Origin: a virus
Direction: 5' to 3' (one strand)
IMG/VR virus record: IMGVR_UViG_3300021197_000993
Span: 4,811 to 68,810 of that record
Length of the DNA stretch: 64,000 nt
A program made the translations under genes and the position numbers. Under the pieces are notes generated by a model. That model made no database searches. It had not been told where the DNA came from and worked only from the letters and a program-made list of their open reading frames with translations. Shown piece after piece: positions 1,627 to 63,744 of the stretch (positions are counted from its first letter, which is position 1; the number at the start of each line of letters is the position of its first letter).

Positions 1627-1785
1627 TCACTTCATCCCCTTGCGTAATCCATCCCAACATGCTTGTTGCAATTCTTCTTCCGACTCAAAGATGATGAACG
1701 AATCCTTTGATTCAATCGTAGCCAACCACATCGTAATGAAGCCAGCGATAAACGCCATCAAAAACGCAACCCACAACGGTATCAT
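1627..1785 (-). CDS. Small single-pass membrane protein (52 aa)
   Basis: ATG at 1785 overlaps the fibre stop (ATGA). N-terminus MIPLWVAFLMAFIAGFITMWLA is hydrophobic. Confidence 0.6.
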   Translation of the reverse strand: MIPLWVAFLMAFIAGFITMWLATIESKDSFIIFESEEELQQACWDGLRKGMK

Positions 1786-4208: not shown

Positions 4209-4554
4209 CGTCTTTCACCTCTTCAAATCTGTCTCTCAATACGGGCTTCCGCACAACGATGTGTCGTCCCCCACCTTTCATTTTTATTGGAGTTCCTTCT
4301 ACATTTTGCACGCGCACCACACCGGGTCGCTCGTTTGGATTTGACTTAGACTGTGTTGCAAAACCGCGCGCCTCTTGTGGGTCGGTCGTGAAGAAGAGTC
4401 CGGGGCTTGGTGCTTGAGTGTTGTCGGGATAGCGCACGCGCCCTTTCGGTTGCAGTCCCTCTTGGTTGGCTTGATTCATGCGCGATGTGCCATGATACCA
4501 CGGTCCTTCGGGTGCTTTGAGCAAACGCCATGCTTTCTCCATCGGACTCATCAT
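4198..4554 (-). CDS. ADP-ribosyltransferase-fold-like small protein with N-terminal AWxxLK leader
   Basis: WYHGTS...EGLQP...GLFFTTDPQEARGFA resembles the H-G-T and aromatic-F-T-T-D strands of ART-fold domains. N-terminus is MMSPMEKAWRLLK. Confidence 0.6.
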   Translation of the reverse strand: MMSPMEKAWRLLKAPEGPWYHGTSRMNQANQEGLQPKGRVRYPDNTQAPSPGLFFTTDPQEARGFATQSKSNPNERPGVVRVQNVEGTPIKMKGGGRHIVVRKPVLRDRFEEVKDDGN

Positions 4555-4901
4555 GACACCTCCAAAATGAATGAGAAGCGCACTTCGTTTTCCGCGCTCT
4601 TTGTGAGTGAGTGGATGTCAGCACGATACACCGGAATGAACTCTCCGGTAGACGCGTCTTTGTATTGTAGGTAAACCTCTTGGATAGGGCTTGCGAAGAC
4701 ATGCGACGCGTTCAGCACGCCTTCAACGAGGATGCTGGTGTCGTCAATGATTTGCACACGAGGAACGACGCGCGCCATCGTGCGCGCACCACCGTCTTCG
4801 GATGTTGCAATGGTCCCGTCGCTACCAACATGCAACTCGTTGACAAGCGTTGCGAGGTGTTCAACCAAGCGTCTCTTGATAGCGTTGAGCATTGGCATCA
4901 A
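4551..4901 (-). CDS. Hypothetical virion (baseplate/fibre-attachment) protein
   Basis: 116 aa, beta-rich, coupled to both neighbours by ATGA overlaps. Confidence 0.6.
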   Translation of the reverse strand: MMPMLNAIKRRLVEHLATLVNELHVGSDGTIATSEDGGARTMARVVPRVQIIDDTSILVEGVLNASHVFASPIQEVYLQYKDASTGEFIPVYRADIHSLTKSAENEVRFSFILEVS

Positions 4902-6568
4902 ATCTTCCTCCGTATTCGTCGTCCCTTCGTTGTTCGCATTTCATGTGCGCGCGGTCGGAGCATACGCACCTCCGCCGCTGAACCGGGTATTGCGGCCCCA
5001 CTTACCAAACTTACGCCTGTGAATGTAGTGGCTGTTTTTCCACTATACGATACGAGCGATTGGTCAGCGATGATGAGATGGCCGCTTGAGTCAAAACCAT
5101 CGGTGCTGGCGACCGTGATAGCCCCTGCCGCATGTGTGCCGCTGATGCGCTTCGTGATACCGAAACCAAGAGCCGACCGTCCCGCGCCATATCCGCTGTT
5201 GCGGTGAGCCAAAAGGATGCCAGCGTGGATGTCCGAGCCTGTATTCAACGCGCTCGTTTTGGTTCTCGCCAACTTACCGATGACCGGTCGCACCAGTAAT
5301 ACACCGCGCACTTTCAACTGCGAACTACCAACACCACTCTTGTTTATGCTGACTACTTGCTGACTGCGGTCTGCTTCACCTTCTTCGTCATCCATATCTG
5401 CGCTGTCTCCGAAGGCGTTGACCACGGCTTCAAGACCAGCCTCGTATGAAAGCATTTGAAAGTTTGAAGTCCCATCGGATTTGTGTTCTAATTCAATAAT
5501 ACCTTGACGCACATCACCAGCAGGTGATTTGTAATTGACAACATCACCGGGTTCTATGTCCCACGATTGCGCGTGTAGATTTGATTGCAACGCACCTTGT
5601 GCTTTTTTGTTAAGGCGAAGCATTTGATTTGCGCTACTTCGTGCCTTCGTTTCATTGTTGACCGTGGGGTCTTTGACTTTCATTTGCTTGATTGAGCCTT
5701 GTCGCTTCTGCGCTTCTGCATCATCAACTTCAACGCTAATAGCATCGTTGAGTGCAATACCTGTTCCGCGCATTAGGATGCGATTAGCCACATCAGTAAT
5801 AGGGTCAACCTTCGTTTTACCGATTCCGCGCTGAACACCTAAATCTCGGTCTTTGATATTGAAAATCTTTGGCGCGTAGATGAAGTTCCCAAAGCGGTCG
5901 TAATACATGATGTAGTGGTCATGTCGCCCAAGGAAACGCACTGCTGTGGGTAAGACAGTAGAGTTGAAGTTTTGCGCGACAAAGAGCGTGCTGTTGCCTT
6001 TTGACTCAACGCTGTTCAATCCATGCAGTGCTTTCGTAAACAACTTTTCAACCAAATCTGTGCTACGCAAACCCACGCTTATTGTTTGTCCAGCGTAAAC
6101 ATGAGTCGTATCAACCATTTGAAAATCGGCCAAACTTCTACCCTTCATGTTGATAAGTTCAATTTGCGCGCCTTTGGATGCTGATGATATGCCTTGCGTT
6201 CTCAATCGTAGAGTTGGGTCGCGAGTATCAATCAACAAAACAGGACGGTTTGATGTCGCGCTCATTTGTTGACCATCAAAGTAAGGAGCGTCTTCATGCG
6301 TCGTATGCGCTAATCTTACAGAAGATTGAGTCTCACTGATTCGGTAGCGACGCGGATGAGTTGGTTGAAAATCTGCTTGGTTTGGTTTGCTTACTTGTGT
6401 CTTTTTGCTGTTGTCTTGAACTGTTTCGTAAACAACATGGTGAACAGCATTGTCTACAAATGTCGGCTCTTCGGCGATGGCTCCGATTTCATCGTGAAGT
6501 TCTTTTGCGCGTCCAAGACGCTGACCAACATAGGAAGCGTTTGCTGGCGTAGGGACGGCAAATGTCAT
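4898..6568 (-). CDS. Baseplate hub / tail-tip (Tal-like) protein
   Basis: 556 aa with YYDRFGNFIYAP, NRILMRG and WDIEPGDVVNY segments typical of hub proteins; downstream of the tape measure gene. Confidence 0.6.
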   Translation of the reverse strand: MTFAVPTPANASYVGQRLGRAKELHDEIGAIAEEPTFVDNAVHHVVYETVQDNSKKTQVSKPNQADFQPTHPRRYRISETQSSVRLAHTTHEDAPYFDGQQMSATSNRPVLLIDTRDPTLRLRTQGISSASKGAQIELINMKGRSLADFQMVDTTHVYAGQTISVGLRSTDLVEKLFTKALHGLNSVESKGNSTLFVAQNFNSTVLPTAVRFLGRHDHYIMYYDRFGNFIYAPKIFNIKDRDLGVQRGIGKTKVDPITDVANRILMRGTGIALNDAISVEVDDAEAQKRQGSIKQMKVKDPTVNNETKARSSANQMLRLNKKAQGALQSNLHAQSWDIEPGDVVNYKSPAGDVRQGIIELEHKSDGTSNFQMLSYEAGLEAVVNAFGDSADMDDEEGEADRSQQVVSINKSGVGSSQLKVRGVLLVRPVIGKLARTKTSALNTGSDIHAGILLAHRNSGYGAGRSALGFGITKRISGTHAAGAITVASTDGFDSSGHLIIADQSLVSYSGKTATTFTGVSLVSGAAIPGSAAEVRMLRPRAHEMRTTKGRRIRRKI

Positions 6569-9500
6569 GCTCCCAACCCCGTATTGTCAGTTCTATCTCC
6601 TTCCGAACTGTGGTTGCTCGTGTTGAGTTTGTCGCCAGCGAAAAGCGATTGTGTGTAGCGCGGTTGCACCGTATAGTCAAGACGAACAAAAGACTCATTC
6701 CCGTCGTTTACCGACTGCCTACGAGATGCGTCCCCACGGAAGTGTTGCAGTGTGTTATTGCTTACAATCATACGCGCCACAGGTTGTGTTGCCAGTGTTG
6801 TGAAATCACTCGCTTCACTACCGGGTATTTTTGGTCCAACGCTCGCAGGTGCGCTTGTTGATGCTCCACTTCCCGAAATCGTAAACAGATAAACAGGCGC
6901 GTAGGGAGGGTTGCTTGGTGTTGGATTGCTGTTGCGCATGTAAGAAGACGCTCCATCAGCGGCGCGTGCATTTGGTGCATCGTAAACAAATACGCCGTAG
7001 CGACCGGCGGCGGTAGCGGATAACACATGCGTCGTATCATCACGGAATAATTCAATGTGTTGGTTGTCAAGCACGCGAACTGGACGCACAAGGAACTTGA
7101 TGGTTGTGTCTTTGGTGTTGGTCTTGTAAGAAGTTGAGTCGTGGTTGCTGGTTTGATATGGGTTGGTTGTAATACCGGAAGACGCACCCCAATGATGGTC
7201 GCTGATGTTTTCGCCATCCGACGACACCTCCATGATGTAAGTCCCACCGATTGGAGGAATACCGTGTGTTGTTCCAAACTTCATCACTTGCTTGGCTGAT
7301 GAAAGGTTAAGCGTGTGTAGGTTGAGGTTGTCAACTGCGCGGTTTGCTGTGCTGACACCACCTGCAAGAATGAATCGTTGTCCAACTTGTCGGTCGGTGT
7401 GAACGCTTGTTGCTTCTGTGCTGGCAATGATATATCGTGGCGACATTTCTCCATTGTTTTCAACCACACTTGTCCCATCTATCCCAATACGCGGTTTTGA
7501 TTTTGCAATTGGTTCTTGCATAAAATTGAAGTTTGATTTTTCAACATTCGTTCCTACATTCGCTTCGCGCTTGAGTAGTCCGTCATCACCTGCAAGTTCT
7601 AATTTTGCGCTTATACCACGAGGAACTTCATGAGATTGCAATTGAACATTTGAAGGGCGCAAGAAACCACCCATAAACGGAGGTTCACTGGTGTGGTGCG
7701 ACAAGACCAAACCGAACGGGCGCATATCCTCCGAAACATCTTGGAGTATGTCTTCGTTGAAGTATGTTGGATAACGAACACCGCGCCCATCACCACGGTC
7801 GCCTACGCGCTTCGCCGTAGCAGGGTCAAAGAAGTTGACACTGGCTTCGGAAAACACCATACCTGTTATTGTTGAATACATTGATTCAGCAGACTTTGTT
7901 CTATCTGTCGCGCGGTATGCATCTTCGGGGTCCCACGATGGTCGGATACCAAAACCGCGCACAGGGAAACGACGAACCTCTTCACCGGTTGTGTTGCCCC
8001 ACCAATCAATCATGTAGTGCGCTTGAGCCAATGCGAGGTTTACCCGTTGGTCATCAACATCTGTTCCGGCTTTATGTCCAGCCGGGAGGTCTGCGTGGAA
8101 CTTACGAATTGCTGTGGTTGGGTTGCGGAAGTTCCGAACCGCGCAACCAAACCCTTTGGTCATACGACGACCATCGCTGTATCGCACTTGTTGAAACTTG
8201 AGGTCGCTACCGATTAGCGCGGATGCGTTGGTTTGTCGTTCAATAATACCGACATAGTTTGGGTTGGTGGTTGCTGTGCCTGTTGTGTTTGAACTGCCCG
8301 ATTGTTGATTGATGCGCGTTGTTCCGTTTTGACTGCTGATAAACGGTCCCTCCGCTTGGAAGTGGTAGTAGGTTTGAGAATCGCGCAAACCTTGATTTGA
8401 TTTGATAGCCCATCGTGGACGATTGTAGGGTTGACGAAGAGACACACGGTATCCCCAACCTGCTTGTTTATGTGCAGTCTTGGACAAAATTGTTTCTGTA
8501 ATTGTTTCTACATCACCGTTTGTGATGACAAGTCCATCTGCATCCGACACTTGCTTGATGATGTTGCTATCCCATTTATCGCGCCATCCGGGTGCGGCTG
8601 TGCCGTAGAGTGATAGTGAACTCATCTGCGCACCAAAACGATGACCACCCGGCCAAAACGCACCGAGGTTGTATTTGCGCGACTTTCCATCTACCCCTGC
8701 TTGATTGATAAGCGCGGCTACCGAATATGTGTCAGCGATTGAACCATCCACATTGCTCGGTGATTTCATTCGGAACTTGAAGGGACCATCGCTCATAGCG
8801 TAAGTAAACTCATGGTAGTGAATCATTTCAAAGTGTTCGGGTGCGTGGTTGTATGCTTTCTTGTCAACCGCGGGGTCATTCTTAGTTGCTCGGTCTGTTT
8901 GACTATCGGAGAACCATGTCATCGGGCGACCGAGGTTGTAATGCCATAGGCACAGATACGCGTCGGGTAAGTGTAGGCTGTTGGTATCTCGCGTTCCCGA
9001 TAGCAACTGTGGTAAATTGCGCGTAGCCACGCTTGCTTTAGAGTTGGTGTAAACTTCACCAGCACCAAGGTTGTTGTATTTTGATTTAAGTCGGACAGTT
9101 GCGTTTTGAACAGCCGCAGTCCAAAATCCACTTGTTATGGCCGCGACCGAGTTAAAGACGACAGGCCCATTCGCACCTACACCGCTGATGTATCCTCGGT
9201 CTTCGTATGATGCTGTTTGCTCTACCCCATTATCATCAACAATAACAAGATATTGCGCGTAGTAGTCTGCCCCAGCAACAGGGAACAAATTGTTGTTGCG
9301 CACATACAGTTTGTTGTTCCCTTGGTCCGCATGTTCAACATTTGCGACAGGCGTAAGCGATGTAAGGTAGTCTGTGTAAACATCAAGATAATGAGACGGG
9401 TATCCAAGCATCGTGGTTTGTGTTCCGACAGCACCAAGCGTAGAGCGACAGAACAAGTAGTAATCGTCGGGATGATACAATTGAGAACCTTTCCACGGTG

Positions 9501-12500
9501 AGGTTGATGAAAACACAGTAGAAGATGCAAGCGCGACACTCCACCACGGAACAGTCACGGTGTGTCCGGGTGTTGAACGATGAAACATGTTCGGGTGATA
9601 CGGCAGACTGCGACGCGTAAATGCACCCGAAGAAGTCGCGTTGACACCGAATGGGTTGCTTAAACCAAGCGTAGGTATATTGGTAAACTGCTCGCGCGTT
9701 GACGGGTCAATATCCAAAATGACTTCGTTAAGATAGATTTCACAACCGCGCACATCAGCCATTGTTGCTTCGGAAAGAATAAGGTCGCGACTTTTCATTC
9801 CGACAACAGTAGCAAACAGTTGGTCAGTGAGTGTGCGCACTGTTGCGTTTGTTGCGCCGGGTTCTTTTGGTGCATCAGTTGATGCGAAGACTGTATTTTC
9901 GTTGTTCCCCATCAACTGCTTGCTGAACAGATTTGGCTGAATAACAATTTGATACGCGCCTACTTCTGCTGGGTCGGGGAAGTGAAATTGTGTGTTGTAG
10001 TTTGCTCCGTTTGCTGAACCAACTTCAAGTTGTATTCTGTGTCCACCTGCGGCATTACATGCCGCGGTATCATCAGCAATACCGTATCCATCAAAGCGCA
10101 GTTTTGTTTCAGTCAACAGTGTGAATCCATCACCGTGAATGTCGCTTGGAGGATTGGGTGCTGTGGTTCCGGAGAACCAAAGAAGAGGGTTGGCGATGGT
10201 CTTGGATGTGTCGTAATCAGTTGCACCAAAACATGCGCGGTTTGCTTGATAGATTCGTTGGTAAAGCGGGTGAGCAAGGTGTCCGGGGAGCATAGCCATT
10301 GTTGGCATGACATAATGATGCCCCATACGAGGCAACGGCATTGGGGTAAGTTTGTTTGCCGCGCGGACTAAAGTTGCTGGACTTGTTCCAGCGGAAAGAG
10401 TTGACCAGTTCGTGTGAGGTTTGTCCGGACTGTTGCCACTCACTTCTGCATGGTCGCGCAAACGGCGTGCCGCAAACTGTCGTGTTGAACCTGCGGGTAT
10501 GTAGAATGACGGCTTGATGCTATCATCTTCGGAAGCGGTGAAATCGGGCGCAAACGCAACACCGGTGAACTGTGTTCCACCGTCGGGCGCATCTGTGAAT
10601 GATGCAATTGTGCCGTTGATTGACAAAAAGTAGCGTCCATCGGGTGTAGGGTCTTGTTTCCAAATGTCAGCAACAATAGCCTCTTTGGTCGTGATTGTGT
10701 TTGTTCCAACAGACGCAACCGTAAGACGGTTGAGTGTCATGGTGTTGTTGACAATGCGCAACGGCTCACGCTCCGTGTAGGTGTAGCCCATCTTGGTGAT
10801 GTGAAAATACAACGCGCGGTCGTGAGGTTCGTATGATGTTTCAAGAATGTTTTCCGATTGCAATGCTTTGTTGCTGTCGGGGAAACTGTTGGGGTTTTGA
10901 TTGATGTGTTCATACCCGTCTTGTTCCCAAAACGGTTCTGTGCGAGGGTGGCCGTCGCTTTGTCCATTGAAAGCATCAATCGTCTGTTTTGTTGGCTGGT
11001 TTGGATGTTGAAGTCCTCCGCTACCTATTGTTTCATGCTGGTATGCTTGAAGACGGTCAAACCCTGCACGAACGAGTATGTTGCCCGGTATCTCATCATG
11101 GTCGGGGAGTTGTATTTTCATGTTCGGTGCAACACCGGAACCTGCTAAAGCAGGAGCAAGACCTTCATTTTCTCGGTCATGGACTATTTTGTAGTCGCGT
11201 ATAACAACCCCAAGAGGTGAACCTCCTGTCAGTATGTGTTCTTGACCTGTATCATCAACAACAACCATGTCTTTGAATTGCATCTCTTCGTTTGGTATGT
11301 TAAGCGCGTTTTGAACTTCGTAAGGATATTGTTCAGCAAGAGCGGGATGAGCCAACTCTTGTGCTTGGATAACAGGATACATTGCCGCGTTGGTAGTCTC
11401 AAACGAAAACCGCACATTACCGTAGATAGTTTCACCAAATCGGATATATTCCGAACCAACCTTGTGAACTTGCCAAGGCATAGAACCAAGACCGCGTGCG
11501 TTTTGAGCAGGGAGTGTGAGGTTGCCACCACCCATACGCTTCCATACCACATGTTCTGCAAAGAAATTGCGACCCGCGTATCGTGTTTTAAAGTAGGAAT
11601 AGATTGTATCCCTGTGTGTTCCGTAGGTATCATAGCCAACATTTTCAGTCTTCGCCACTTCCGAATCAAAAATGTTATCGTTTGGATAATGCGCGTTGTT
11701 TGGATTTTCGGTTTTGTCAAAGAATAAATCACCTGTTGGGTAGAGACAAGTTTCACTTTGCGCAAGTGAAGTTGAAGCCGCATGTGTCCAAAGACGACTA
11801 TTTGCATTGTCGTTTGTTGGTGTTGTCATTGTTGTGTCATGCATAGCCTCAACATGTGGCCCTGCATTTGATTCAGCGTTGTAGCGGTCGTTGTTGAAAC
11901 GCTCATTATGATACGCTGTAATAGTCCCACCTTGTGTTCCTCCCCACTTGAGTTGAAGCATGTCTCCACAGGTCTGTTGTCCGTTGCGCGCGGCTTTAGC
12001 AATGATTGGTAAATCACCTTCGTAAGACACGACAACAAAATGTCGTTGATGCAACGATGTGGCGTTATGTGTATTGGTTTTTGGTTCCCACACATGCTCT
12101 CCGTTGTCTGTTGTTTCCGCCCCGGACCCCGACACAAGACGCAAAACCCATTCTAATGATTGTGGGTTATGACAAGCAGTAGCCGCACCGTAAGGTGTGA
12201 AGCCCATCATAGGATGCCATGCGCCAAGACCTGCGGCAACCTTGTCGCTGATGTTAAGACTGTTGAAGTATGAATATCGTTCACCATGCCAACCCACTGC
12301 ACCAACTGCGCGTGTTCGGTCTATGGCATCAGTTGCACCATTAAAGTGAACCTGTGTTGACGCGTAGTGGTCAAATGGACCGTTTGACATTTGACCCGAT
12401 GATGTTGTTCCTGTTGAGCGTGTTCCGTCAACTGCGTTTTGAAACCCGTTGTCCCAGCGCAAGTTGCCAGCCTTTGACCAAACAAACACTTTGTGCCCCT

Positions 12501-15500
12501 CTCCCTCAACGGATGAAACATCACCTGTTCCGCCAATCGCAGGTTCTTCTAAACGCTTAAATCCGCTACGCATATTTCCTCCAAGAATAAATGTTCCTTG
12601 TGCAACATCGTAGTGAGAGTAGTAGCCGTAGTAGGATTTTGTGCCGTTGCTGACGCGTATCCAACCATTTTCCGGCAGTGTCATCGGTAGAGCAGTTCCT
12701 ACGGAAACAAGACCGTGTGGTTCATTTGTGTAGGCCCCAAGACTACCAACATCAATCCAACCGTAGCGGTCTTGTCGTTGCGCATCTTGGAATGATGGGA
12801 GGAAAGAACCACCAAGAGCCTTGAGGTTTGACCGACCGGGCCATGTATTGATTGCCGCGGCAACAACTGCACCCAACTCTTCGCTGTTTTGACAACGCGT
12901 TGCGTCAATCAAAAACACATCATCGGGGACTACCGCATCTAAATTGTCGTCGTAGTCAGTCAAGACTTGCGAACCAACTCGGAACATTGTCGCGTTAAGT
13001 CCGAGTCGGTCAATGTATTGAACGGTCGCGTTTACCGAATTGACCAGTGTTGCTGTGATTGGATGAGGCGCGTTCTTTCGCACGCTGTTATCAAACCAAG
13101 ACCCACCAGCGGTGTAGCCTCCGTCAAGGTGGAATATCAGTTTATCAAGAGCAAATGATTTGACTCGCGCTGATGAAAAACGAACAGCCGCGGCGTAGAA
13201 AGAGAATGGATGACCGTATTCATTTGCCGCGCTTTGTGCGGCTGATGATGCACCGAAGAAATGACTGCTGACATAGCGTGCTTCTGTTGAAATAGATTGA
13301 TTAAACGCGCTGTTTGGTGAACCATACGACGGCTCCCAATGTCGGAAAGTTGTGTAAGGGAATACATTGTTTGCGCTATATGCGTCTGCTGGTGGTAAGA
13401 ATTGATTTGCCGCGCCGTTGAGCGTTCCGTTGCTTAACTCATTCGGCAGGAAATAACCCGATTCGTTGCCTTGATTAAAAGTAGTCGCCATTGCTCCATC
13501 AAGCGAACAGTATTTTTTGAACGCGGCAGTCCATTTTGCAGACGGCTCTTTGGCTACATCTATTGCAACACCTTCACCATACCAATGCTTAGGAACCGCT
13601 TGACCGGGACCAAATATCATGTAGGCTACGCTGTTGGTTGAGTCTGTGTAGCGCGCATAAGGGTGAGCAAAACGAAGCACAACTGGCGTAGGTTGCGCGA
13701 TATTGACATTGGTGTAAGTTGTAGTAGGTATCGTATGCGTGTTGGTGTTGCCGTCAATGTCGGGATTGAGAACAGCGTCTTGATTAGCAAACGGTGGTGT
13801 TGCTTCACCGCGATGCTGGTTGGTAATTATAGCGGCAGGGAACATAGCAAATAACGCAGTAGTGTCAAGAAGCGCATAGGCTCCCATTTTTTCTCCGATG
13901 TCTTGCAGTCCAGCACTTCCTGTTGGTCCGCTGGCGTATGGGTGTTTGTTATGCGCGCTGTAATCTACACGCGAACTATCATTGATGTCCATAACGACAC
14001 CGCTGAATCCACCACCAAAATACAACGGCACATGATGGTCAATGCTGTCTTGTGCGCCACGGAAATACAACAATGGTTTACCTCTACGATTAGCGCGAAG
14101 TCGCAAACCTTGAATGTCATTAACAAACTTGAATCGTTGAAGAATTGCGTTGACAATTACTTTGTCTTTGAAATCACCTTTGCTGTCGTCGTGATGCCAA
14201 GCGAGTAGGTCTTGCGCAACATCAGTTGGCGCGTCAATTGAACTCAATGCGGCGCAATAAATGTAAGTGTCTTCATCAATATCCATGCGTTTGAAAGGAG
14301 TCCAAGACCCGTCAATTGTGGTGCTACCACCAAACTCGGTTGAAGTGTCATAATTCAAGTTGCTACCGCCGGTGTCAACATGTTGCAATTGCCACGCGTA
14401 TTGACGACCAAGAACAGTAAATAAAGCAGGGTCGCGCATTTGGATTTGGTAAGTGTCGTAAGCAGTCCCACCGGGGAATGCTAATCCAGCGGTTTGCGGG
14501 TCAAGTTCGTAAGTCGCGGCTTCAAGCGAGGGTGTAATATGGTCCCCTTCATAGCGTGTAAACTTATCACCGCGCAAATGTTTTTGCCAATTATCAATAG
14601 GAATAGCATTGTTGGTTTGGTCAACAAGAACAGGCGTTGCTGTGTTTGCATTACTCCCTTTGTATCTTGTAGTAATTGTAAGCAAGGTGTGAGGGAGATA
14701 GCCGACTTCTTCCATTGTTGAACCTACTTTATCCCCAAGACCACCAAATTGTCCCCCCGACGAAAATGAAGCGTTAATGGTAGCATGTTCAACGATACTG
14801 GATTGCAGTCCCCAATCGGGTGATAGCGAAACGGAGAACATTTTGTTCAACGGTATCACTTCTTTGTCTTGATTAAACTTGGTTATTTCAATTGCAGTTT
14901 GTGCATTGTCGCCCATAATTTCTCCATAGGTGCGACCATCCGGTGCGCGCAGATGTGAACAGTCAAAGTATTGGTTGCCTTCGTTGGGGTCAACAGTAAA
15001 AGCGTAAGCGGTCGCCGCGGCAATCAATTCGTCGGTCACGATGGTTGTTTGGTTGAGATGAGGACTGATAATAACAGGCGCGCGTGAGGATGATACGCTG
15101 GTTGGTCCAGCCTTATCTTGAGAGTCAAACCAAGTTGCCGCCATTGAGTTTGCACCAAAGCCTTCAACACCAAAAAAGGTATGAGGTCCACCGCGACCGT
15201 TTTGTGTGCGCGAAGTGTAGGAAAACACCACACCAACATTGTTGTATTGACTTCTTGATGATGGTATAGCCAACCACACCAGTCCACTATTGGGAAAGCC
15301 CATCCATCCTAACACATCGTCAACATCCGGCAGTTGATGCCAAATACCGCCATTGTGGTATCCGTAGCCACTCGCATCATGAATACCAAGAGTGTTGTTA
15401 GCCATTGCAGTATCCATCGTGACCGCATATCCAGCGTTCGGGGTGTGAACGCCGCGCCATTTATTGCCGCGCCAATTGTGGTCTGTTGTTCCTGTGTAGA

Positions 15501-18500
15501 AAAACGGCGTTCCGTCGGAACCTTTGCCCCACATGTTTGCACCAATTGTAAAACCACCCTGCGCAATATCACGGTCGTTAAAATAAACAAGCGTTTCTTC
15601 GTCAATTGTGTTTGGCATAACCGAGTTTTTGTGTGAGAAAGAATCTCCCGCGCGACGATAAATGTATCGTAGAATATGTGATTTACCGCGATGGTCAACC
15701 ATTTTTAATCCATAAAGCGATTGCGTGCCAACTGACGCGTCGTTGACTTGTAATGACGGCACATACGAATTATAAACGCTGTAATAAGTGTCATCTGCTT
15801 CAAGGTAGTTTCCATAAATTGACGACACAAACCGACCAGTGTCTTTACCGTCTTCGCCAAAACCCCAATCACCAGCATCCGGTGCAAACCCCGGAACACC
15901 TGCGGCAACTATACCACCAAAGTTGATTCTTGCTCGCGCATTACTACCTGTCTGCAATCCTTCACGGATGGTAAACTTTTGACCACTGTTTTCAAATGAT
16001 TCCATAGCACCTGTATTTGAAGCGCGACCAGTTGATGTTCCGCTGTTTGGTGTTTCTTGTGTAGATGTGTTGAAATTGCTGTTAAAACCAAGATGTAAGT
16101 TGGTGAAAAACTCATCCGAGTCCTCATCCAACGCTACATATTCGCGCAAAGTTGTAATTGGTGCAAACGGTTTACCGTTTTTGTCAATCGGCATAGGTGC
16201 AGGGTGCATATTTTCACCTGCTATTTCGGGTGGTGCGCAGTAGAAATTGCGGAAACGGCCACCGTGTCCAATAAGGAATTGTGGCTTGTATTCAGCCTGT
16301 CCTTTGCTGTTGTCAAGCCACGCACAAAAGTTGCGGCTGGTCGCGCCGGGAACGGTGCTGTGAATAACGATGCTGTATCCTTCGTTGCCGTTTGCATCCT
16401 CAACGACACGCCCTAAATGAGCGCGTAAATATCCCATGTGAGAACCGCGGTCAAATGATGTAAAGGCTGTTTGCGCGTTCCAAAATGGCGCGGGGTCATG
16501 CGTGCTACCTGTGGTTGCAAAGTCTGCATGATGATGTGCGGCTGTTGCATCAGTTGGTTCTTCGGTATCAATACCGCCAACAGAAACAGCGCGACGATTG
16601 ATGTCAAAGCGTTCTCCCTCACCTGCGTATTGGTCGGATGGTCGTCGTTGACTGCTTTGTCCATTAAGCGCACCCCCTTGATTGATGAGACGAACAACTT
16701 CGCGAGCCGCCGCTTCAATGTCTGTCACACCTTCGCGCAACCCAATTTCACCCATGTCAATGCTAAGACGACGAACAAAATCCATGTCTGTCCAGTGAGG
16801 CAGTTTGGACAAGTGACTATCACCCACATCCACTATATTGTGAGCAACAGCACGCTTGCCCTTCAAACAAAGAAACGCTGAAATAACACGCGTCCCTTCG
16901 GGCGTATCAAAGAATGTTGATGAAAATTGATAGTGTCCTGTCGTGTTATCAATAATGGCTTCGGATGTGTCGTGGTCAATTGTTTCAGCGTGTTGCGTTT
17001 GTGCGCTATCAACATCAACCGTTGATTGCTGGACCCGTCCTTGTCCGAACTGTGTTGTTTCAGTTCCAAATTGAATTGTATGTTGTGTTGCGCGTCCTTT
17101 TCGGTTGAAACGATTCAGTGCTACATTGTTTGTCAGCATGAACGACTCATCCATCAACCACCATGATTTGTGAGCATACGCGCTTTCAACATATTGTGAT
17201 TTGCCTTCGTCTTTGATAAGGTTGTAAGAAGTGCTGTTAATTGTTTGAGCGTCAGTAGTTGAAGTTGTTGCGTTGTCTTTGCGCTGTGTTTTAAATCCAG
17301 CCGCTACATCAAGTCCTTCAATGGTCGGAGTAGCCGCGCTTGTTTGAACTTGCATGTGAAGGTCATGAAACGAAATAAACTCACGGTCATGCTCTACATC
17401 GTAAAGCAATACTCGCGCGTGTGTTTCTGTGCTAAGGTAGGGGTCAAGGAAAGCGACGACGGGTGCGCTTGTGCCGTGTCCAAGTTCAGTCCAGTTCAAC
17501 TCTATGGTTTTGTTTACATGTTGAACAAAGTTGCGAGCAGATTCAAGACAAGTATCGCCAATAAGGAAGTTTTCAAGAGGAAGACTGTCGCGCGCTTCAA
17601 CTCCCAAAGAGCCTTTCCCACCATCAAATCCACTCCAAACTTCGTATTCGTTAAGAACACCTCGCGATTTACAAAACATTCCTTCAATTGCGTGAGGGTT
17701 GGTGTAGTGCATGTTCATCCAAACCGTGTCGCCGTAGCGCAGTCCACCGGGGCAATATGGATTATTCCATGTCGCGTTTGCGATACCATCTTCAAGTTTG
17801 ATAGGGAATGTTGTTGCGCTTGTTGAATAAATACCAAGAAGCGTAAGAGTATCACCTGCCGCGACATTGGGTGCTGTGTTGTCAAGAAGAGGGTGAGCGT
17901 TGATTGTAAGTTGAGTAGCGTTGGTTGTAGAGTTGTAAGTGATTACATACTTACGACCCGTAGCCTCGTTGACAGCGGCAAATGAATAGTTCGTTGGTAA
18001 ATGTCCTTTAGGTATATCACCTTTGAATGAAAATGTTTGACCGGTGATGAGTATTAACAAGTCCAACTTTGCATTTTTAGATTTAATTCGTGGTAAATGA
18101 GGATTTGCGCTTGGCCCAGCCTTGAACTCAACTGCACTGACATACTGACGCAGACCATAGTCAAGATTGCCGCCTTGAGTCATTACACTCCCGCGGTCGT
18201 AGTAAAATGGTCGTCGGTATTCTTGTGCTGATGATGCGTAATCATCATCACCCGCGAGAGGAAAACTTGTATTGTTTGGTAGAACACCAACAATAATTTG
18301 AGAGCCAACAGTCAGCGAAGCAAAGAAGTCGGGACTTGAGTGAGTATCCAACTCGCTTAGTGTGATGGTTGACCCACCTGCATATTCGTAGTAAGCCCAC
18401 TCTCCGTTTCCAAGCACCAGTTTGCGTGTGCGTCGTGTGCTGACACCTTTGACGGTTCCAGCCGCGTTGAAGTTTGATTTGGGTATTCGGAGAAGACCAT

Positions 18501-21500
18501 CACCAATGTAGAGGATTCTGTTTGTGCCTTGCTGGTCATAGCGACGGACAGTAGCGCGAATAGGCAAATCGTTTGATAGTCGGTATTGGTATTGCCCGAA
18601 TGCTTCGTAATCGTTGGCTGGATAGTTTGGCGCGCGACGACCAACAGGCGAAGGGTTCCAAGCCTGTGCAGTCATCGTTGCATCAAGGTGCAACTTCATG
18701 CTGTTGTCGGGTCCGGGGAAAATACCTGTGTTGCGGTTTTCAAAAAATTGTTGAGGAAAGAGTGGTATTTCAACAAGTGCGCGTGTGCTGGCGTATTGCG
18801 TCCCAAGTTGATAATCGTGTTGAACAGAACCAAGTGATTGAAACAATCGGTCGTTGACGGTTGTCCCATCCGCGCAAATTGAAGAAGTTGCGAACAACGG
18901 GTCAAGCAGAACCAATTGACCCGCGGTAATTCCGCTTTGCGTGACCCAATTAGCAAATGAACCGGTTTCGTTGCCGTTAGGGAGCAAAAACTTACCGGAA
19001 CCCGTATGCACTATTCCGGAAGCAAAAGTAAAAGTGGTTCCTGTCTTGCTTGCGTATTCAGCACTCGCTCCGTTCTCCAAATAGATGCGACCAGTAGCGG
19101 GGAAACAATATGTCCCCCATGTTGCTAATGTAATTCCAGCGTTGTTCAAAGCGGCTACAACCACTGTTTGACTTGAACTTGATTCTATATTTTGAATGAT
19201 TGCGGCGCAATCATGACGCGTGTTCCAACCTACGCGAGACAGTGATGCAGGGTCCCATGTTGGTTTTGTATTGATAGCACCTTGACCAACACCACCAAGC
19301 GTGACCGATACAACAGGTGCGCCCGGTTGAATCTCTTTGACGATGTGTGAATTAGGACTCCCATCACCGCTGTAAGCAACAGTTTGGTCAGCAATGTCTG
19401 CCATTAACCCTTGACCCTCCATGATGAGGTATCGTCCAGCACCACTGTCGTTGACTTGCATAGATGTTATACGCGCGGTTGTTTGAATGTATTCAATCGT
19501 AAAGTAGGTGTTATCATTGAAGTCTACCGTTGCTGGTGTTGTTCGCGTCAATTGCATGGTGCGTTCGCGCTTACTTGGTTGAACAATAAAAATGTAAGAA
19601 TCACCTTCTTTGTCATTATCAATAATGTCAAACATTTCAAACGCACCACCTTTCTGTGAAGCAAACTGTGTGCTTTCTTGGTAATGAGTTGGTGCTTCAC
19701 CAACAGGTGGGTCGCTTGCACTTCGTTGCATAGGTTGAAGATGAAGTTTGTGATAGGCTGATGGGTGGGATGTTGTTCCAATACCTTGAGGGGGTTTTTG
19801 TGATTCATCACCTGCAACACGCGGAGTATAGTTGCTTGGCAAAAACGATTCATCTAAATCAGTTTCATACGAAATGCCACCAGTGTTATCACCAACAAGA
19901 TGATGAGGTTTCATTGCAACTTGCGCACTTCCAATATCTTGAGATGAGGCAGTGATAACCCCACCCGGAGAATGAATTGTCGCGCCAGCACCAACAGCAT
20001 TAGCAATATGCGCGGCTACTCGGTTGCCGTCAAGTAGACAACCACCGTCGGGAACTGTTTTGGTGATGAGCAATGCTGGGTTGCTTAATCCCATTTTACT
20101 ACCTGTAAGGTCAACCGCGTTGTAATGAATCTCAACATAACCAGCGGTCAATCCCGACACTTCAAGAATAGCAACGCGTGATTCTGTTTCGGGTGTAAGG
20201 TGCTTTGTGTATTGAGCATCGGTAGTTGATGACACACCAATGCCTCCACCTTTCAACAAAAACGGCTCAATGCTATCAACTGATATAGCAATGACACCAT
20301 CACGGTGTGCATCAAGTGAAGCAAGACCGTTTCGCACAATACCGTTGGTTGTTGCTGATGTTTTGATGCTCATTATCCGCGCGTTAAAAGCCGTATGTGA
20401 AATCTCAACTTTGCTGTTAATCGGCATTACATTTTTCAGTCCAAGGTAAGAACCCGCGAAGGTCACAAGAACATCATCAGCAATACCGTCAATCGTTCTC
20501 GTAATTTCTTGTTCGTGAATAGGAGGTAGCATTTGTAAGAAAGGATGCCCTTTTCTGTGAGAATACACATGTCTACCTGCGTGTCCTGTTTTGAATCGTT
20601 CTGCAATTGTCCATGACGAAGGAGCAAACGCGTTGGTGTTTACAGCAATACCGCGCGAGTAGATAAAACCATGAAACTCGTTTTGACTTTCATCAATCAC
20701 CATCGCGCCTGTTCGGTCAATGGCTTGGCTACCCGTCCCAAGTCGTTGAAATGGCTTACCGCTTTCGCTGTCAATAAGCAAATCGGAACGAACGAGAACC
20801 AATGATGAATCATTAGCAAAGTTGTTTCCGCTGTTGAATGCAGTTCGTGAGTGTAGCACACCGCGCGAACCTGTGTTGCTTGATACACCAAAGTCAAGGT
20901 GGATGCTTTCAACCGTTATGGTTCCGTTGGTGTTGATTTGTTTAAGACGAACTCGTTCCGGTGGAGTGCCGTTGGGTAGTCCAGTAAGCACATCTGTTGC
21001 GGTAGGGTTGATAATGAGATTAAATGGAGTATGAGCCACGCTGATTACCTGCGCACCTCCGCTGTGCGCGGCGTTTGCAACTTGATAATTACCAAGACTT
21101 TCAAGCGGGTAGTTGGTTGCCAGCGTATCGGATTTACCGCTTACCGTTTCGTAAAGGGTTTGACACGCGGTGCTACCAATTGTGATGGTTGTGTCGCCAG
21201 CAGTGATGTTGCTGGTTGCGTAAAATGTTGTTTCATCAACACTGACTGGCTCTTCAAATCGCCAAAGTCCAATTGTGCTGTTTGAAAGCATGCATGGTTT
21301 TGCGCGTGTTTCAAGTGTAGACACATCGGATTTCCAATGCACTGTCTCAATGTAGCCGCGATACTCACCTCCTTTACCTCCAATGAAAAAGTCTTGGTCA
21401 TTCATATTGCATGAGTATTTTTTGTTCATTTTATGCGATGCCAGTAGTTCACCGTTGACATAAAGTTTGACTTGCTCACCATTGAACTCGCCGGATATAT

Positions 21501-21930
21501 GATACAACTCGCGCTGTCCTGTGTTGTAGCCAACATTGTTGCTGATAAACGAACCTGCCGCTGTTGGATAATTGTTCGCGCTTGTTGCAATAACAGATGT
21601 TTGGTTGGTGAGTTGAACCTTGAATGATGCTTTACCGGGGGCATCTACTGTCCCCATGCGTAATTCAAACAGCCCACTCTTGCTTGCAATCACACCACCG
21701 CAATCGGGCGACACCCACGCTTCAACAGTGAAACTGCTTAGTGATTGGTTGTTGGCGTTTGCAAAGCGATGGCCGTCCCCATCTTGTAATATGGGCGCAG
21801 ATGAGCGCGCAACGGCTCCGTTTAGTTCGCGCTTATGTCCTGTTTTGACAAAGTTGCCTTGTGGACAAACAATGCTATCGCTCACACCGTTGAAAAACAA
21901 CGCGTGGCTTGTTTGTCCAATAACTGCCAT
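6565..21930 (-). CDS. Giant (~5120 aa) tail/baseplate protein with N-terminal LamG (ConA-like) domain
   Basis: Uninterrupted 15.4-kb ORF. ALFFNGVSD...FTVEAWV...YHISGEF...KLYVNG...FFIGG...IGLWRFEE is the LamG signature. Start taken at ATG 21930 after GGGGAG. Confidence 0.8.
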   Translation of the reverse strand: MAVIGQTSHALFFNGVSDSIVCPQGNFVKTGHKRELNGAVARSSAPILQDGDGHRFANANNQSLSSFTVEAWVSPDCGGVIASKSGLFELRMGTVDAPGKASFKVQLTNQTSVIATSANNYPTAAGSFISNNVGYNTGQRELYHISGEFNGEQVKLYVNGELLASHKMNKKYSCNMNDQDFFIGGKGGEYRGYIETVHWKSDVSTLETRAKPCMLSNSTIGLWRFEEPVSVDETTFYATSNITAGDTTITIGSTACQTLYETVSGKSDTLATNYPLESLGNYQVANAAHSGGAQVISVAHTPFNLIINPTATDVLTGLPNGTPPERVRLKQINTNGTITVESIHLDFGVSSNTGSRGVLHSRTAFNSGNNFANDSSLVLVRSDLLIDSESGKPFQRLGTGSQAIDRTGAMVIDESQNEFHGFIYSRGIAVNTNAFAPSSWTIAERFKTGHAGRHVYSHRKGHPFLQMLPPIHEQEITRTIDGIADDVLVTFAGSYLGLKNVMPINSKVEISHTAFNARIMSIKTSATTNGIVRNGLASLDAHRDGVIAISVDSIEPFLLKGGGIGVSSTTDAQYTKHLTPETESRVAILEVSGLTAGYVEIHYNAVDLTGSKMGLSNPALLITKTVPDGGCLLDGNRVAAHIANAVGAGATIHSPGGVITASSQDIGSAQVAMKPHHLVGDNTGGISYETDLDESFLPSNYTPRVAGDESQKPPQGIGTTSHPSAYHKLHLQPMQRSASDPPVGEAPTHYQESTQFASQKGGAFEMFDIIDNDKEGDSYIFIVQPSKRERTMQLTRTTPATVDFNDNTYFTIEYIQTTARITSMQVNDSGAGRYLIMEGQGLMADIADQTVAYSGDGSPNSHIVKEIQPGAPVVSVTLGGVGQGAINTKPTWDPASLSRVGWNTRHDCAAIIQNIESSSSQTVVVAALNNAGITLATWGTYCFPATGRIYLENGASAEYASKTGTTFTFASGIVHTGSGKFLLPNGNETGSFANWVTQSGITAGQLVLLDPLFATSSICADGTTVNDRLFQSLGSVQHDYQLGTQYASTRALVEIPLFPQQFFENRNTGIFPGPDNSMKLHLDATMTAQAWNPSPVGRRAPNYPANDYEAFGQYQYRLSNDLPIRATVRRYDQQGTNRILYIGDGLLRIPKSNFNAAGTVKGVSTRRTRKLVLGNGEWAYYEYAGGSTITLSELDTHSSPDFFASLTVGSQIIVGVLPNNTSFPLAGDDDYASSAQEYRRPFYYDRGSVMTQGGNLDYGLRQYVSAVEFKAGPSANPHLPRIKSKNAKLDLLILITGQTFSFKGDIPKGHLPTNYSFAAVNEATGRKYVITYNSTTNATQLTINAHPLLDNTAPNVAAGDTLTLLGIYSTSATTFPIKLEDGIANATWNNPYCPGGLRYGDTVWMNMHYTNPHAIEGMFCKSRGVLNEYEVWSGFDGGKGSLGVEARDSLPLENFLIGDTCLESARNFVQHVNKTIELNWTELGHGTSAPVVAFLDPYLSTETHARVLLYDVEHDREFISFHDLHMQVQTSAATPTIEGLDVAAGFKTQRKDNATTSTTDAQTINSTSYNLIKDEGKSQYVESAYAHKSWWLMDESFMLTNNVALNRFNRKGRATQHTIQFGTETTQFGQGRVQQSTVDVDSAQTQHAETIDHDTSEAIIDNTTGHYQFSSTFFDTPEGTRVISAFLCLKGKRAVAHNIVDVGDSHLSKLPHWTDMDFVRRLSIDMGEIGLREGVTDIEAAAREVVRLINQGGALNGQSSQRRPSDQYAGEGERFDINRRAVSVGGIDTEEPTDATAAHHHADFATTGSTHDPAPFWNAQTAFTSFDRGSHMGYLRAHLGRVVEDANGNEGYSIVIHSTVPGATSRNFCAWLDNSKGQAEYKPQFLIGHGGRFRNFYCAPPEIAGENMHPAPMPIDKNGKPFAPITTLREYVALDEDSDEFFTNLHLGFNSNFNTSTQETPNSGTSTGRASNTGAMESFENSGQKFTIREGLQTGSNARARINFGGIVAAGVPGFAPDAGDWGFGEDGKDTGRFVSSIYGNYLEADDTYYSVYNSYVPSLQVNDASVGTQSLYGLKMVDHRGKSHILRYIYRRAGDSFSHKNSVMPNTIDEETLVYFNDRDIAQGGFTIGANMWGKGSDGTPFFYTGTTDHNWRGNKWRGVHTPNAGYAVTMDTAMANNTLGIHDASGYGYHNGGIWHQLPDVDDVLGWMGFPNSGLVWLAIPSSRSQYNNVGVVFSYTSRTQNGRGGPHTFFGVEGFGANSMAATWFDSQDKAGPTSVSSSRAPVIISPHLNQTTIVTDELIAAATAYAFTVDPNEGNQYFDCSHLRAPDGRTYGEIMGDNAQTAIEITKFNQDKEVIPLNKMFSVSLSPDWGLQSSIVEHATINASFSSGGQFGGLGDKVGSTMEEVGYLPHTLLTITTRYKGSNANTATPVLVDQTNNAIPIDNWQKHLRGDKFTRYEGDHITPSLEAATYELDPQTAGLAFPGGTAYDTYQIQMRDPALFTVLGRQYAWQLQHVDTGGSNLNYDTSTEFGGSTTIDGSWTPFKRMDIDEDTYIYCAALSSIDAPTDVAQDLLAWHHDDSKGDFKDKVIVNAILQRFKFVNDIQGLRLRANRRGKPLLYFRGAQDSIDHHVPLYFGGGFSGVVMDINDSSRVDYSAHNKHPYASGPTGSAGLQDIGEKMGAYALLDTTALFAMFPAAIITNQHRGEATPPFANQDAVLNPDIDGNTNTHTIPTTTYTNVNIAQPTPVVLRFAHPYARYTDSTNSVAYMIFGPGQAVPKHWYGEGVAIDVAKEPSAKWTAAFKKYCSLDGAMATTFNQGNESGYFLPNELSNGTLNGAANQFLPPADAYSANNVFPYTTFRHWEPSYGSPNSAFNQSISTEARYVSSHFFGASSAAQSAANEYGHPFSFYAAAVRFSSARVKSFALDKLIFHLDGGYTAGGSWFDNSVRKNAPHPITATLVNSVNATVQYIDRLGLNATMFRVGSQVLTDYDDNLDAVVPDDVFLIDATRCQNSEELGAVVAAAINTWPGRSNLKALGGSFLPSFQDAQRQDRYGWIDVGSLGAYTNEPHGLVSVGTALPMTLPENGWIRVSNGTKSYYGYYSHYDVAQGTFILGGNMRSGFKRLEEPAIGGTGDVSSVEGEGHKVFVWSKAGNLRWDNGFQNAVDGTRSTGTTSSGQMSNGPFDHYASTQVHFNGATDAIDRTRAVGAVGWHGERYSYFNSLNISDKVAAGLGAWHPMMGFTPYGAATACHNPQSLEWVLRLVSGSGAETTDNGEHVWEPKTNTHNATSLHQRHFVVVSYEGDLPIIAKAARNGQQTCGDMLQLKWGGTQGGTITAYHNERFNNDRYNAESNAGPHVEAMHDTTMTTPTNDNANSRLWTHAASTSLAQSETCLYPTGDLFFDKTENPNNAHYPNDNIFDSEVAKTENVGYDTYGTHRDTIYSYFKTRYAGRNFFAEHVVWKRMGGGNLTLPAQNARGLGSMPWQVHKVGSEYIRFGETIYGNVRFSFETTNAAMYPVIQAQELAHPALAEQYPYEVQNALNIPNEEMQFKDMVVVDDTGQEHILTGGSPLGVVIRDYKIVHDRENEGLAPALAGSGVAPNMKIQLPDHDEIPGNILVRAGFDRLQAYQHETIGSGGLQHPNQPTKQTIDAFNGQSDGHPRTEPFWEQDGYEHINQNPNSFPDSNKALQSENILETSYEPHDRALYFHITKMGYTYTEREPLRIVNNTMTLNRLTVASVGTNTITTKEAIVADIWKQDPTPDGRYFLSINGTIASFTDAPDGGTQFTGVAFAPDFTASEDDSIKPSFYIPAGSTRQFAARRLRDHAEVSGNSPDKPHTNWSTLSAGTSPATLVRAANKLTPMPLPRMGHHYVMPTMAMLPGHLAHPLYQRIYQANRACFGATDYDTSKTIANPLLWFSGTTAPNPPSDIHGDGFTLLTETKLRFDGYGIADDTAACNAAGGHRIQLEVGSANGANYNTQFHFPDPAEVGAYQIVIQPNLFSKQLMGNNENTVFASTDAPKEPGATNATVRTLTDQLFATVVGMKSRDLILSEATMADVRGCEIYLNEVILDIDPSTREQFTNIPTLGLSNPFGVNATSSGAFTRRSLPYHPNMFHRSTPGHTVTVPWWSVALASSTVFSSTSPWKGSQLYHPDDYYLFCRSTLGAVGTQTTMLGYPSHYLDVYTDYLTSLTPVANVEHADQGNNKLYVRNNNLFPVAGADYYAQYLVIVDDNGVEQTASYEDRGYISGVGANGPVVFNSVAAITSGFWTAAVQNATVRLKSKYNNLGAGEVYTNSKASVATRNLPQLLSGTRDTNSLHLPDAYLCLWHYNLGRPMTWFSDSQTDRATKNDPAVDKKAYNHAPEHFEMIHYHEFTYAMSDGPFKFRMKSPSNVDGSIADTYSVAALINQAGVDGKSRKYNLGAFWPGGHRFGAQMSSLSLYGTAAPGWRDKWDSNIIKQVSDADGLVITNGDVETITETILSKTAHKQAGWGYRVSLRQPYNRPRWAIKSNQGLRDSQTYYHFQAEGPFISSQNGTTRINQQSGSSNTTGTATTNPNYVGIIERQTNASALIGSDLKFQQVRYSDGRRMTKGFGCAVRNFRNPTTAIRKFHADLPAGHKAGTDVDDQRVNLALAQAHYMIDWWGNTTGEEVRRFPVRGFGIRPSWDPEDAYRATDRTKSAESMYSTITGMVFSEASVNFFDPATAKRVGDRGDGRGVRYPTYFNEDILQDVSEDMRPFGLVLSHHTSEPPFMGGFLRPSNVQLQSHEVPRGISAKLELAGDDGLLKREANVGTNVEKSNFNFMQEPIAKSKPRIGIDGTSVVENNGEMSPRYIIASTEATSVHTDRQVGQRFILAGGVSTANRAVDNLNLHTLNLSSAKQVMKFGTTHGIPPIGGTYIMEVSSDGENISDHHWGASSGITTNPYQTSNHDSTSYKTNTKDTTIKFLVRPVRVLDNQHIELFRDDTTHVLSATAAGRYGVFVYDAPNARAADGASSYMRNSNPTPSNPPYAPVYLFTISGSGASTSAPASVGPKIPGSEASDFTTLATQPVARMIVSNNTLQHFRGDASRRQSVNDGNESFVRLDYTVQPRYTQSLFAGDKLNTSNHSSEGDRTDNTGLGA

Positions 21931-21931
21931 C

Positions 21932-27873: not shown

Positions 27874-27893
27874 GTTTTTCGCTCCGCCTTGTC

Positions 27894-33300: not shown

Positions 33301-33301
<1 letters not shown>
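32153..33301 (-). CDS. Major capsid protein (HK97 fold)
   Basis: 382 aa directly after protease/scaffold. GGIAENGVLP, KPKTVAHTF, ATYNGVPMIP and IYYLDTDYL segments fit HK97-type capsids of archaeal tailed viruses. Confidence 0.9.
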
Positions 33302-63690: not shown

Positions 63691-63744
63691 TGGTGATGGG
63701 GAGGGCGACCATACCCTTGAAGGTAGCGGTTGATGGAAAATTGG

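Follow-up and report, generated by a model that had tools for sequence, protein, structure and literature searches.

The stretch of DNA analysed here (the window) comprises 64,000 nt, positions 4,811 to 68,810 of the IMG/VR record IMGVR_UViG_3300021197_000993, a 68.8 kb viral record estimated to be 66% complete, and it contains a single open reading frame (ORF) of 15.4 kb that takes up 24% of its length. Our analysis suggests that the product of this gene, hereafter the giant, is probably the main structural protein of the distal tail end, that is, of the tail-tip or baseplate complex, in a tailed marine archaeal virus of the magrovirus type. We favour this role because of the position of the gene, the structure of its operon, the fixed synteny around it, a natural series of gene fusions and fissions that involves the downstream gene p556, and lectin-fold (LamG) modules that recur at different places across the superfamily.

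The first-pass annotation of this DNA had described one ORF of about 5100 aa and 15.4 kb, filling about a quarter of the window, and this description holds: the frame encodes 5,121 aa (computed mass 557.8 kDa, pI 5.8), compared with 568 aa for the tape measure protein (TMP) of the same virus.

6565..21930 (-): giant ORF, ATG at 21930, stop TGA at 6565-6567, 5,121 codons

The frame opens at a TTG at 21954, and the ATG at 21930 is the more plausible start, with GGGAG just upstream. We estimate that the gene makes up about 15% (about a seventh) of the genome of such a virus. The enrichment in His, Pro and Gly that had been noted was overstated, as the composition is unremarkable (G 9.2%, P 5.0%, H 3.2%). 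Promoter-like and terminator-like sites within the gene are no more frequent than in shuffled sequence.

Position of the giant in the tail module

All genes around the giant share its strand, and their layout is that of a canonical siphovirus late module, in the order terminase, portal, 2,002-aa ORF, prohead protease, major capsid protein (MCP), tail tube, chaperone-position pair, TMP, p387, giant, p556, p116, p118 and tail fibre. The genes closest to the giant are the following.

23092..24798 (-): TMP, 568 aa; nine PHROG matches, seven of them labelled tape measure, best E 4.4e-12
21932..23095 (-): p387, 387 aa, in the Dit position; its stop lies 1 nt ahead of the ATG of the giant
4898..6568 (-): p556; its ATG overlaps the TGA of the giant (ATGA); PHROG 'virion structural protein', E 1.8e-6
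4551..4901 (-): p116, between p556 and the fibre gene; kept in 15/15 loci and in 8/8 sister-lineage loci
1782..4208 (-): tail fibre protein, 808 aa; PHROG tail fibre, E 4.4e-46

With the stop of p387 at a distance of 1 nt on one side and the overlapping start of p556 on the other, the giant is predicted to be translationally coupled to the neighbouring tail genes. The gene for p387 is kept in 14 of 15 loci and is also present in the sister lineages described below, while the trio of genes downstream of the giant is constant in all 15. The TMP weakly matches that of the haloarchaeal virus HVTV-1, and at ~1.5 Å per residue its 568 aa would correspond to a non-contractile tail of ~85 nm; p387 has no family match in Pfam or PHROGs, and its family profile likewise found nothing among all PDB sequences. 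The tail-tip location proposed in the first-pass annotation is supported by this arrangement, in which the giant lies between TMP/p387 and the fibre gene in a conserved and apparently coupled module.

Conservation and intactness of the gene

Homologues of the giant form at least 268 clusters in a large protein collection within a length band of 2,816-8,962 aa, and the best 120 are mostly 5,048-5,969 aa long and 37-90% identical, with a few shorter, truncated entries. Nearly all come from marine metagenomes; family members in public databases are labelled hypothetical proteins, and some are mis-binned to bacterial metagenome-assembled genomes. Among 64 IMG/VR loci the gene is a single intact ORF (5,098-5,663 aa) in 30, is cut by a contig end in 32 and is frameshifted in 2, so that it is intact in 30 of the 32 complete loci. 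The two frameshifted copies, L029 and L031, lie on near-identical contigs, in which the reading frame changes at two points (locus positions ~18231-18736 and ~24245), beside an ambiguous base. These frameshifts are probably assembly or sequencing errors, or possibly the mark of a decaying copy; as the homologous sequence is uninterrupted across the frame change, they do not separate distinct genes. Split-gene homologues were also sought among 64 matches to shorter proteins, and those inspected start or end within conserved blocks or lie on short contigs, and are fragments. The sequence itself is corroborated by a viral-fraction metagenome from another study, in which identical contigs tile 30/30 bins of the giant, and a sediment metagenome holds one contig with a ~96% variant that covers 9749-22100.

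A full-length alignment of 30 sequences, down to 43% identity, has more than 1,000 invariant columns. The first-pass annotation had proposed that variable and conserved blocks be mapped among relatives, and the resulting map shows blocky conservation (high at 851-1100, 1391-1550, 1651-1950, 2601-2700, 3451-3650 and others) and indel hot spots at about 616, 757, 2450-2600, 4392 and 4915. Ten close relatives are 57-90% identical per 100-aa window, with no swapped cassette. The pattern of a hypervariable fibre, in which an N-terminal anchor is conserved and the distal part is swapped, is thus absent from the giant, whereas the downstream 808-aa fibre, of which only the N-terminal ~200-690 aa are retained among relatives, shows it. 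Relatives whose MCPs are 79-84% identical have giants that are only 44-50% identical, when the contigs are paired by their lengths. The invariant columns, the lack of cassettes and the lower identity compared with the MCP indicate that the giant is constrained along its whole length yet evolves faster than the capsid.

Two observations concern insertions in the family. An insert of ~70 aa rich in Gly, Thr and Val ('...DGD.VYK.DGT..G...') stands at differing positions in the family members P0157, P0144 and P0153, which suggests a small mobile insertion domain. When 12 lineage-specific insertions were compared with Pfam, one was identified, an extra LamG domain in L026.

Fusion and fission of the gene in a sister lineage

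An exhaustive profile search with residues 1391-2590 of the giant against 1.84 billion representatives yielded 130 proteins, namely giants, fragments and a second set of mostly 1,600-2,200 aa that has a module of ~130-170 residues in common with the giant. By BLAST these shorter proteins are colinear with the giant at residues 1-237, 449-905, 1027-1089, ~1716-1929 and 2630-2693, and several of the 1,600-2,200-aa proteins carry a LamG domain near the C-terminus. There are 19 IMG/VR loci of this sister lineage, and in the 8 that were examined the synteny of the window is retained (p526, p146, tube, chaperone, TMP, p387, slot, p116, fibre). In 13 of the 19 the slot holds two genes, gene A (2,169-2,408 aa) and next to it gene B, which has 2,248-3,083 aa where the contig runs on, and in 5 it holds three, A1 (820-929 aa), A2 (1,670-1,787 aa) and B; in the remaining locus, L068, gene A is split unlike in its close relatives, probably by a frameshift. 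A1 matches residues 1-345 of the giant and A2 matches 449-2693. The N-terminal part of B corresponds to residues 3543-3876 (41-47% identity by tblastn; hhalign probability 99.8%), its middle to residues 4653-5099 (hhalign probability 98.9%, E 3e-17), and its C-terminus matches p556 by tblastn. The giant with p556 (5,677 aa) thus corresponds to A (or A1 and A2) with B (~4,600-5,800 aa), and colinearity is kept while the gene borders are shifted at three places. The blocks of the giant that carry these matches are listed here.

19216..20586 (-): core block 1, aa 449-905; BLAST to the 1,600-2,200-aa family and to sister A/A2; beta-rich domains, then conserved 847-906 at pLDDT <50 (predicted local distance difference test)
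18664..18852 (-): core block 2, aa 1027-1089; 44-57% identity across lineages; monomer pLDDT <50
16144..16785 (-): core block 3, aa 1716-1929; most conserved, common to all shorter family members; pLDDT partly low
13852..14043 (-): core block 4, aa 2630-2693; 39-52% identity across lineages; low monomer pLDDT
10303..11304 (-): block homologous to the N-terminal part of gene B, aa 3543-3876; tblastn, hhalign
6634..7974 (-): C-terminal region, aa 4653-5099; homologue of the middle part of gene B; hhalign

In the search of representatives, core block 3 occupies profile positions ~372-550. A fusion of p556, p387, p116 or TMP onto the giant occurs in none of 126 long family members.

The colinear matches to A and B, together with a gene B that ends in a p556-like region, argue that the giant is a lineage-specific fusion of A (or A1 and A2) with the N-terminal two thirds of B. 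By Rosetta-stone logic, under which fusion and fission link proteins that act together, the A, A1, A2, B and giant chains would be part of one assembly. The first-pass annotation had held that homologues consistently split into separate genes would speak against a giant protein. Within its own clade the gene is whole, as described above, and in the sister lineage two or three genes fill the slot; these split genes do not refute the giant gene but show a fusion of proteins that work together. The value of this series of one, two or three genes is that it tells which proteins must assemble together.

Domains and predicted structure

21334..21768 (-): LamG/ConA-like jelly-roll, Pfam limits aa 55-199, fold about aa 3-215
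14011..15963 (-): nested globular region, about aa 1990-2640, pLDDT mostly 80-96, largely specific to the fused lineage

An N-terminal LamG domain had been recognised in the first reading of the DNA, and both Pfam (Laminin_G_3, PF13385, aa 55-199, 38.9 bits against a gathering cut-off of 27.6, E 1.2e-9) and an AlphaFold2 model confirm it, the latter as a two-sheet jelly-roll sandwich that superposes on solved LamG and pentraxin domains, and to which a strand near aa 458-464 returns. A LamG-type fold alone shows no ligand, and the giant may bind glycans. Lectin-type domains of this kind nevertheless support as likely the adhesion role that had been suggested.

AlphaFold2 was applied to 2,400 of the 5,121 residues, with alignments that pooled the three architectures. 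Model 1 (aa 1-1200; mean pLDDT 77.5, predicted template modelling score 0.69) contains the LamG sandwich, confident beta-rich domains that extend from aa 216 to ~846 (with aa 809-841 as a long hairpin), then a small domain at 907-1027 and a further one that begins at 1113, while aa 847-906 and 1028-1112 are at pLDDT <50 though they are the most conserved. Model 2 (aa 1641-2840; mean pLDDT 66.0) has a region at ~1990-2640 with pLDDT 80-96, and its cross-lineage blocks (parts of 1755-1985, and 2640-2840) are at pLDDT <50. Mean conservation of low-confidence compared with confident blocks is 0.76 versus 0.59 in model 1 and 0.67 versus 0.62 in model 2. Going by these models, the conserved low-pLDDT segments may fold in the assembly only.

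A Foldseek search of PDB with model 2 gave nothing at E <= 0.001 (best 1.3), and its sole significant match in BFVD is an unnamed entry of the giant's own family at 39% identity. The ~650 residues modelled at pLDDT ~90 thus appear to be without a clear relative in PDB or among viral models. Matches to the giant are absent from PHROGs (E <= 0.001) and NCBIfam, and in Pfam they are limited to LamG, with no collagen, coiled-coil or Ig-repeat match; profiles of both halves of the giant and of the p387 family, run against the whole set of PDB sequences, reached E 0.47 at best; and tblastn of both halves against 50,697 GenBank phage records found no match. In the ESM Atlas all scores are <= 0.82 and the clusters are LamG-dominated or unnamed; these are leads only.

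These searches bear on two further statements of the first-pass annotation. Its thousands of residues without a recognised motif stand, in that no library matched anything except LamG, and the structure prediction with Foldseek that it proposed gave confident globular domains in the two slices, with LamG matches for model 1 and no clear relative for model 2. Its suggestion of hidden hydrolase domains finds no support: no hydrolase or other enzyme domain occurs in Pfam, PHROG or NCBIfam matches or in the two folded slices, and regular-expression scans for HExxH, GxSxG and GDSL revealed no conserved catalytic-looking motif.

The giant is also unusually free of repeats for its size. A self-BLAST returned the identity match only, and among 51 slice profiles (HMMER) the best off-diagonal match was 2 bits. 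Three copies of a short motif, 'P..G[RLW][IV].[LV]' with an aromatic-rich strand behind it, stand at aa 947-954, 2216-2223 and 3089-3096 (window positions ~19069-19092, ~15262-15285 and ~12643-12666). The first two copies fall within the sole weak reciprocal slice-profile matches of the giant, and the motif is possibly a small hairpin module.

Proposed role in the distal tail and alternative explanations

In the mechanism that we propose, the short blocks conserved across all architectures (about 847-906, 1027-1112, 1797-1929, 2630-2700 and 3543-3670), which are predicted to be unfolded in the monomer, would form an oligomeric core that docks via p387 onto the end of the tube and tape measure. 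Globular domains, mostly of unrecognised fold together with the LamG lectin modules, would project outward and be the first to meet the glycans on the host envelope. Fine host specificity would probably reside in the mosaic downstream fibres, because the giant has no hallmarks of a receptor-binding fibre and the 808-aa fibre is conserved N-terminally only.

Several points weigh against a distal-tail role. The placement of the giant in the virion is a prediction from its gene neighbourhood, p387 is Dit-like by position only, and the searches made detected no resemblance, in sequence or in structure, to known Dit, Tal/hub, central fibre or baseplate proteins. The structural view covers aa 1-1200 and 1641-2840. 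In addition, LamG matches filled the Foldseek and VIA lists of model 1 and left aa 216-1200 effectively unsearched, so that a hub-like fold there is neither found nor excluded. Low pLDDT may stem from shallow alignments (the effective sequence number, Neff, is low; 2.4 for A3), and the conservation gap in model 2 is small. Finally, the assignment of the host is indirect and taken from the magrovirus literature.

An alternative that we regard as unlikely places the giant at the periphery and not in the core of the tip, as an adhesin or decoration (a whisker, a lateral appendage or an ornament of the tail shaft); by binding weakly as a lectin it would let the virus catch hosts over a wider radius in dilute seawater. 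Such a protein would suit the large size and the presence of LamG at several positions, as well as the weak structural neighbours, which are decoration domains exposed on the surface of sheath and flagellar proteins, and the failure of fold searches to detect a hub-like fold. However, the giant is neither repetitive nor fibrous, its conservation spans the whole length, and its gene invariably sits right after TMP and p387; the candidates for the tip core between TMP and the fibres would then be reduced to p387 and p556.

Less credible still is a cargo or pilot protein, which would travel in the tail or head and on ejection pass into or through the host envelope as a channel former or early-acting factor, in the manner of the internal or ejection proteins of some podoviruses. 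Very large ejected proteins are carried by the virions of other phages, highly conserved segments of the giant are predicted not to fold alone, and the virus has two further giant ORFs without an assigned role. The giant has, however, no segment that resembles a transmembrane helix (only one 19-residue window has a Kyte-Doolittle mean >1.6), an N-terminal lectin fold typical of extracellular proteins, a gene that is placed between the TMP and fibre genes and takes part in fusion or fission with p556, itself a match to a virion structural PHROG, and no enzymatic motif that we could find. That the giant is a non-virion protein (an enzyme or host-takeover factor) placed by chance among the late genes, or an ORF that is chimeric or lacks a function, is very improbable, since, although ~96% of its length is without a functional assignment, the 15.4-kb frame is intact, conserved and widely distributed as described above, its sequence is corroborated by independent runs, it seems translationally coupled to tail genes and it matches no catalytic family. 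All three explanations agree less well than a distal-tail role does with a chain that lacks repeats and hydrophobic segments and bears a lectin domain of extracellular type, and with the order of the genes.

A bolder form of the distal-tail reading, which we put forward as speculation and consider rather doubtful, is a single-chain baseplate, in which three or six copies of the 558 kDa giant together with p556 would replace the whole multi-protein adsorption organelle of siphoviruses. The ultra-conserved blocks that are disordered in the monomer would intertwine as an axial core and DNA exit, ~4,000 residues of unseen folds would face the host, and a chaperonin would be retained since such chains cannot fold unaided.

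Comparison with known systems

Siphoviruses encode tail-tip proteins such as lambda gpJ, T5 pb3/pb4 and SPP1 gp21 downstream of the tape measure. The giant resembles a siphovirus Tal/hub with central fibre in that its gene follows TMP and the Dit-position gene and precedes the fibres, and in being a large multi-domain protein with carbohydrate-binding-type modules. It differs in being 4-5 times longer, in having a LamG rather than a hub domain at its N-terminus, and in matching no tail-tip family in Pfam, PHROG or NCBIfam and no PDB sequence in the profile searches. In the haloarchaeal siphoviruses (HVTV-1, Druskaviridae), homologues of the portal, protease, MCP, tube and TMP follow one another in the same overall gene order, but in HVTV-1 the TMP is followed by seven ordinary genes (151-524 aa, ~2,380 aa in total), and the giant, p387 and p556 match none of the HVTV-1 ORFs by slice profiles or BLAST.

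The baseplates of lactococcal siphophages (TP901-1, Tuc2009, p2) are multi-protein, megadalton structures built from many copies of several small proteins. Their total mass would be comparable to that of the giant if it were trimeric (~1.7 MDa), but here the mass lies in one chain, or in two to three chains in the sister lineages. The giant virion structural proteins of PHROG 701 (profile of 6,136 positions) are likewise very large virion proteins of tailed viruses; the giant itself has no PHROG match, and a match of a ~120-aa module of the sister-lineage B protein to PHROG 701 (E 1e-10) is one small module and not family membership. Unlike giant adhesins built from Ig-like, cadherin, beta-helix or collagen repeats, the giant has neither tandem nor dispersed repeats.

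A magrovirus tail gene has been published as a 'large LamGL-like protein of unknown function' of about 2,000 aa; elsewhere in the literature searched the tail end goes undescribed. It probably belongs to the superfamily of sister gene A (2,169-2,408 aa, 6.5-7.2 kb, LamG-bearing, in the tail module), an equation made by size and domain only, and differs from the giant, which has 5,121 aa and includes the equivalent of most of gene B. In one paper the LamG domain is listed among the auxiliary metabolic genes. In the literature searched we found no description of a magrovirus tail gene of ~5,000 aa. A siphovirus tail-tip apparatus is otherwise of a known kind, and what is notable in the giant is its size, its single-chain form, the natural series of one, two or three genes, the lack of repeats and the amount of unrecognised structure. 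For ~650 residues modelled with confidence, and probably for many others, there is no clear structural relative.

Virus identity and host

The MCP is 33-34% identical to those of the Haloarcula viruses HVTV-1, HCTV-1 and HCTV-5, and the remaining named relatives are viruses of methanogens; the published identity of the founding magrovirus MCP to those of haloarchaeal siphoviruses is 33% (PMC5434244). Complete relatives (98-100%) are 103-118 kb long, and PolB and a chaperonin are found in 4/4. In the record that contains the window, a gene for a Cpn60/TCP1-type chaperonin (E 3e-118) lies at record positions 2263-3684 (+), ~1.1 kb left of the window start, past the last tail-fibre gene and divergently oriented. 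The chaperonin is present in 5/5 fused-type records, 2/2 two-gene records and 0/3 three-gene records, all five two- and three-gene records being incomplete. On the basis of the MCP identity, the ~100-kb relatives and the combination of PolB with a chaperonin, we treat the virus as magrovirus-like (Magrovirales type), and by analogy its host is probably among the Marine Group II/Poseidoniales archaea.

According to published reports (PMC5434244, PMC11706807), magroviruses rank with the most abundant viruses in the surface ocean. None of their hosts is in culture, and their mode of attachment has had no prior account. The targets that the present analysis supplies are the lectin domains with respect to glycan binding, the core blocks for the modelling of multimers, and peptides that can be sought in viral metaproteomes.

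Other genes of the window

46498-47898 (-): large terminase
43686-45068 (-): ORF of 460 aa between terminase and portal; HNH-endonuclease-like region, PHROG 5046, E 2.3e-10
41839-43689 (-): portal
34746-40754 (-): ORF of 2,002 aa, flanked by the portal and prohead protease genes; unmatched in Pfam, PHROGs and NCBIfam
32153-33301 (-): MCP
25960..27897 (-): tail tube protein, 645 aa; Pfam Phage_tube_2, E 2.2e-8; homologue of the HVTV-1 ORF upstream of its chaperones
25066-25816 (-): chaperone-position pair, 148 aa and 123 aa, with a 68-nt overlap, just upstream of the tape measure
56923-63792 (-): ORF of 2,289 aa, the third giant; no Pfam, PHROG or NCBIfam match

The three giant ORFs combined encode 9,412 aa and occupy ~28 kb of the 64-kb window. 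At the site equivalent to the 2,002-aa ORF, HVTV-1 has ORFs of 1,048 aa and 1,313 aa, the latter annotated 'zeta toxin', and the product of the 2,002-aa ORF could be a head-internal or ejection protein. The tube protein is unusually long, with Phage_tube_2 covering residues 288-595 only and ~290 N-terminal residues unexplained. In the chaperone-position pair, the 148-aa ORF carries a eukaryote-type SAP domain (PF02037, E 6.9e-15), which is odd within a tail chaperone; the HVTV-1 annotation has a joined coding sequence where a frameshifted pair of tail assembly chaperones would sit. The HNH-like region of the 460-aa ORF stands beside a published report that the structural module of magroviruses has an inserted nuclease gene (PMC5434244).

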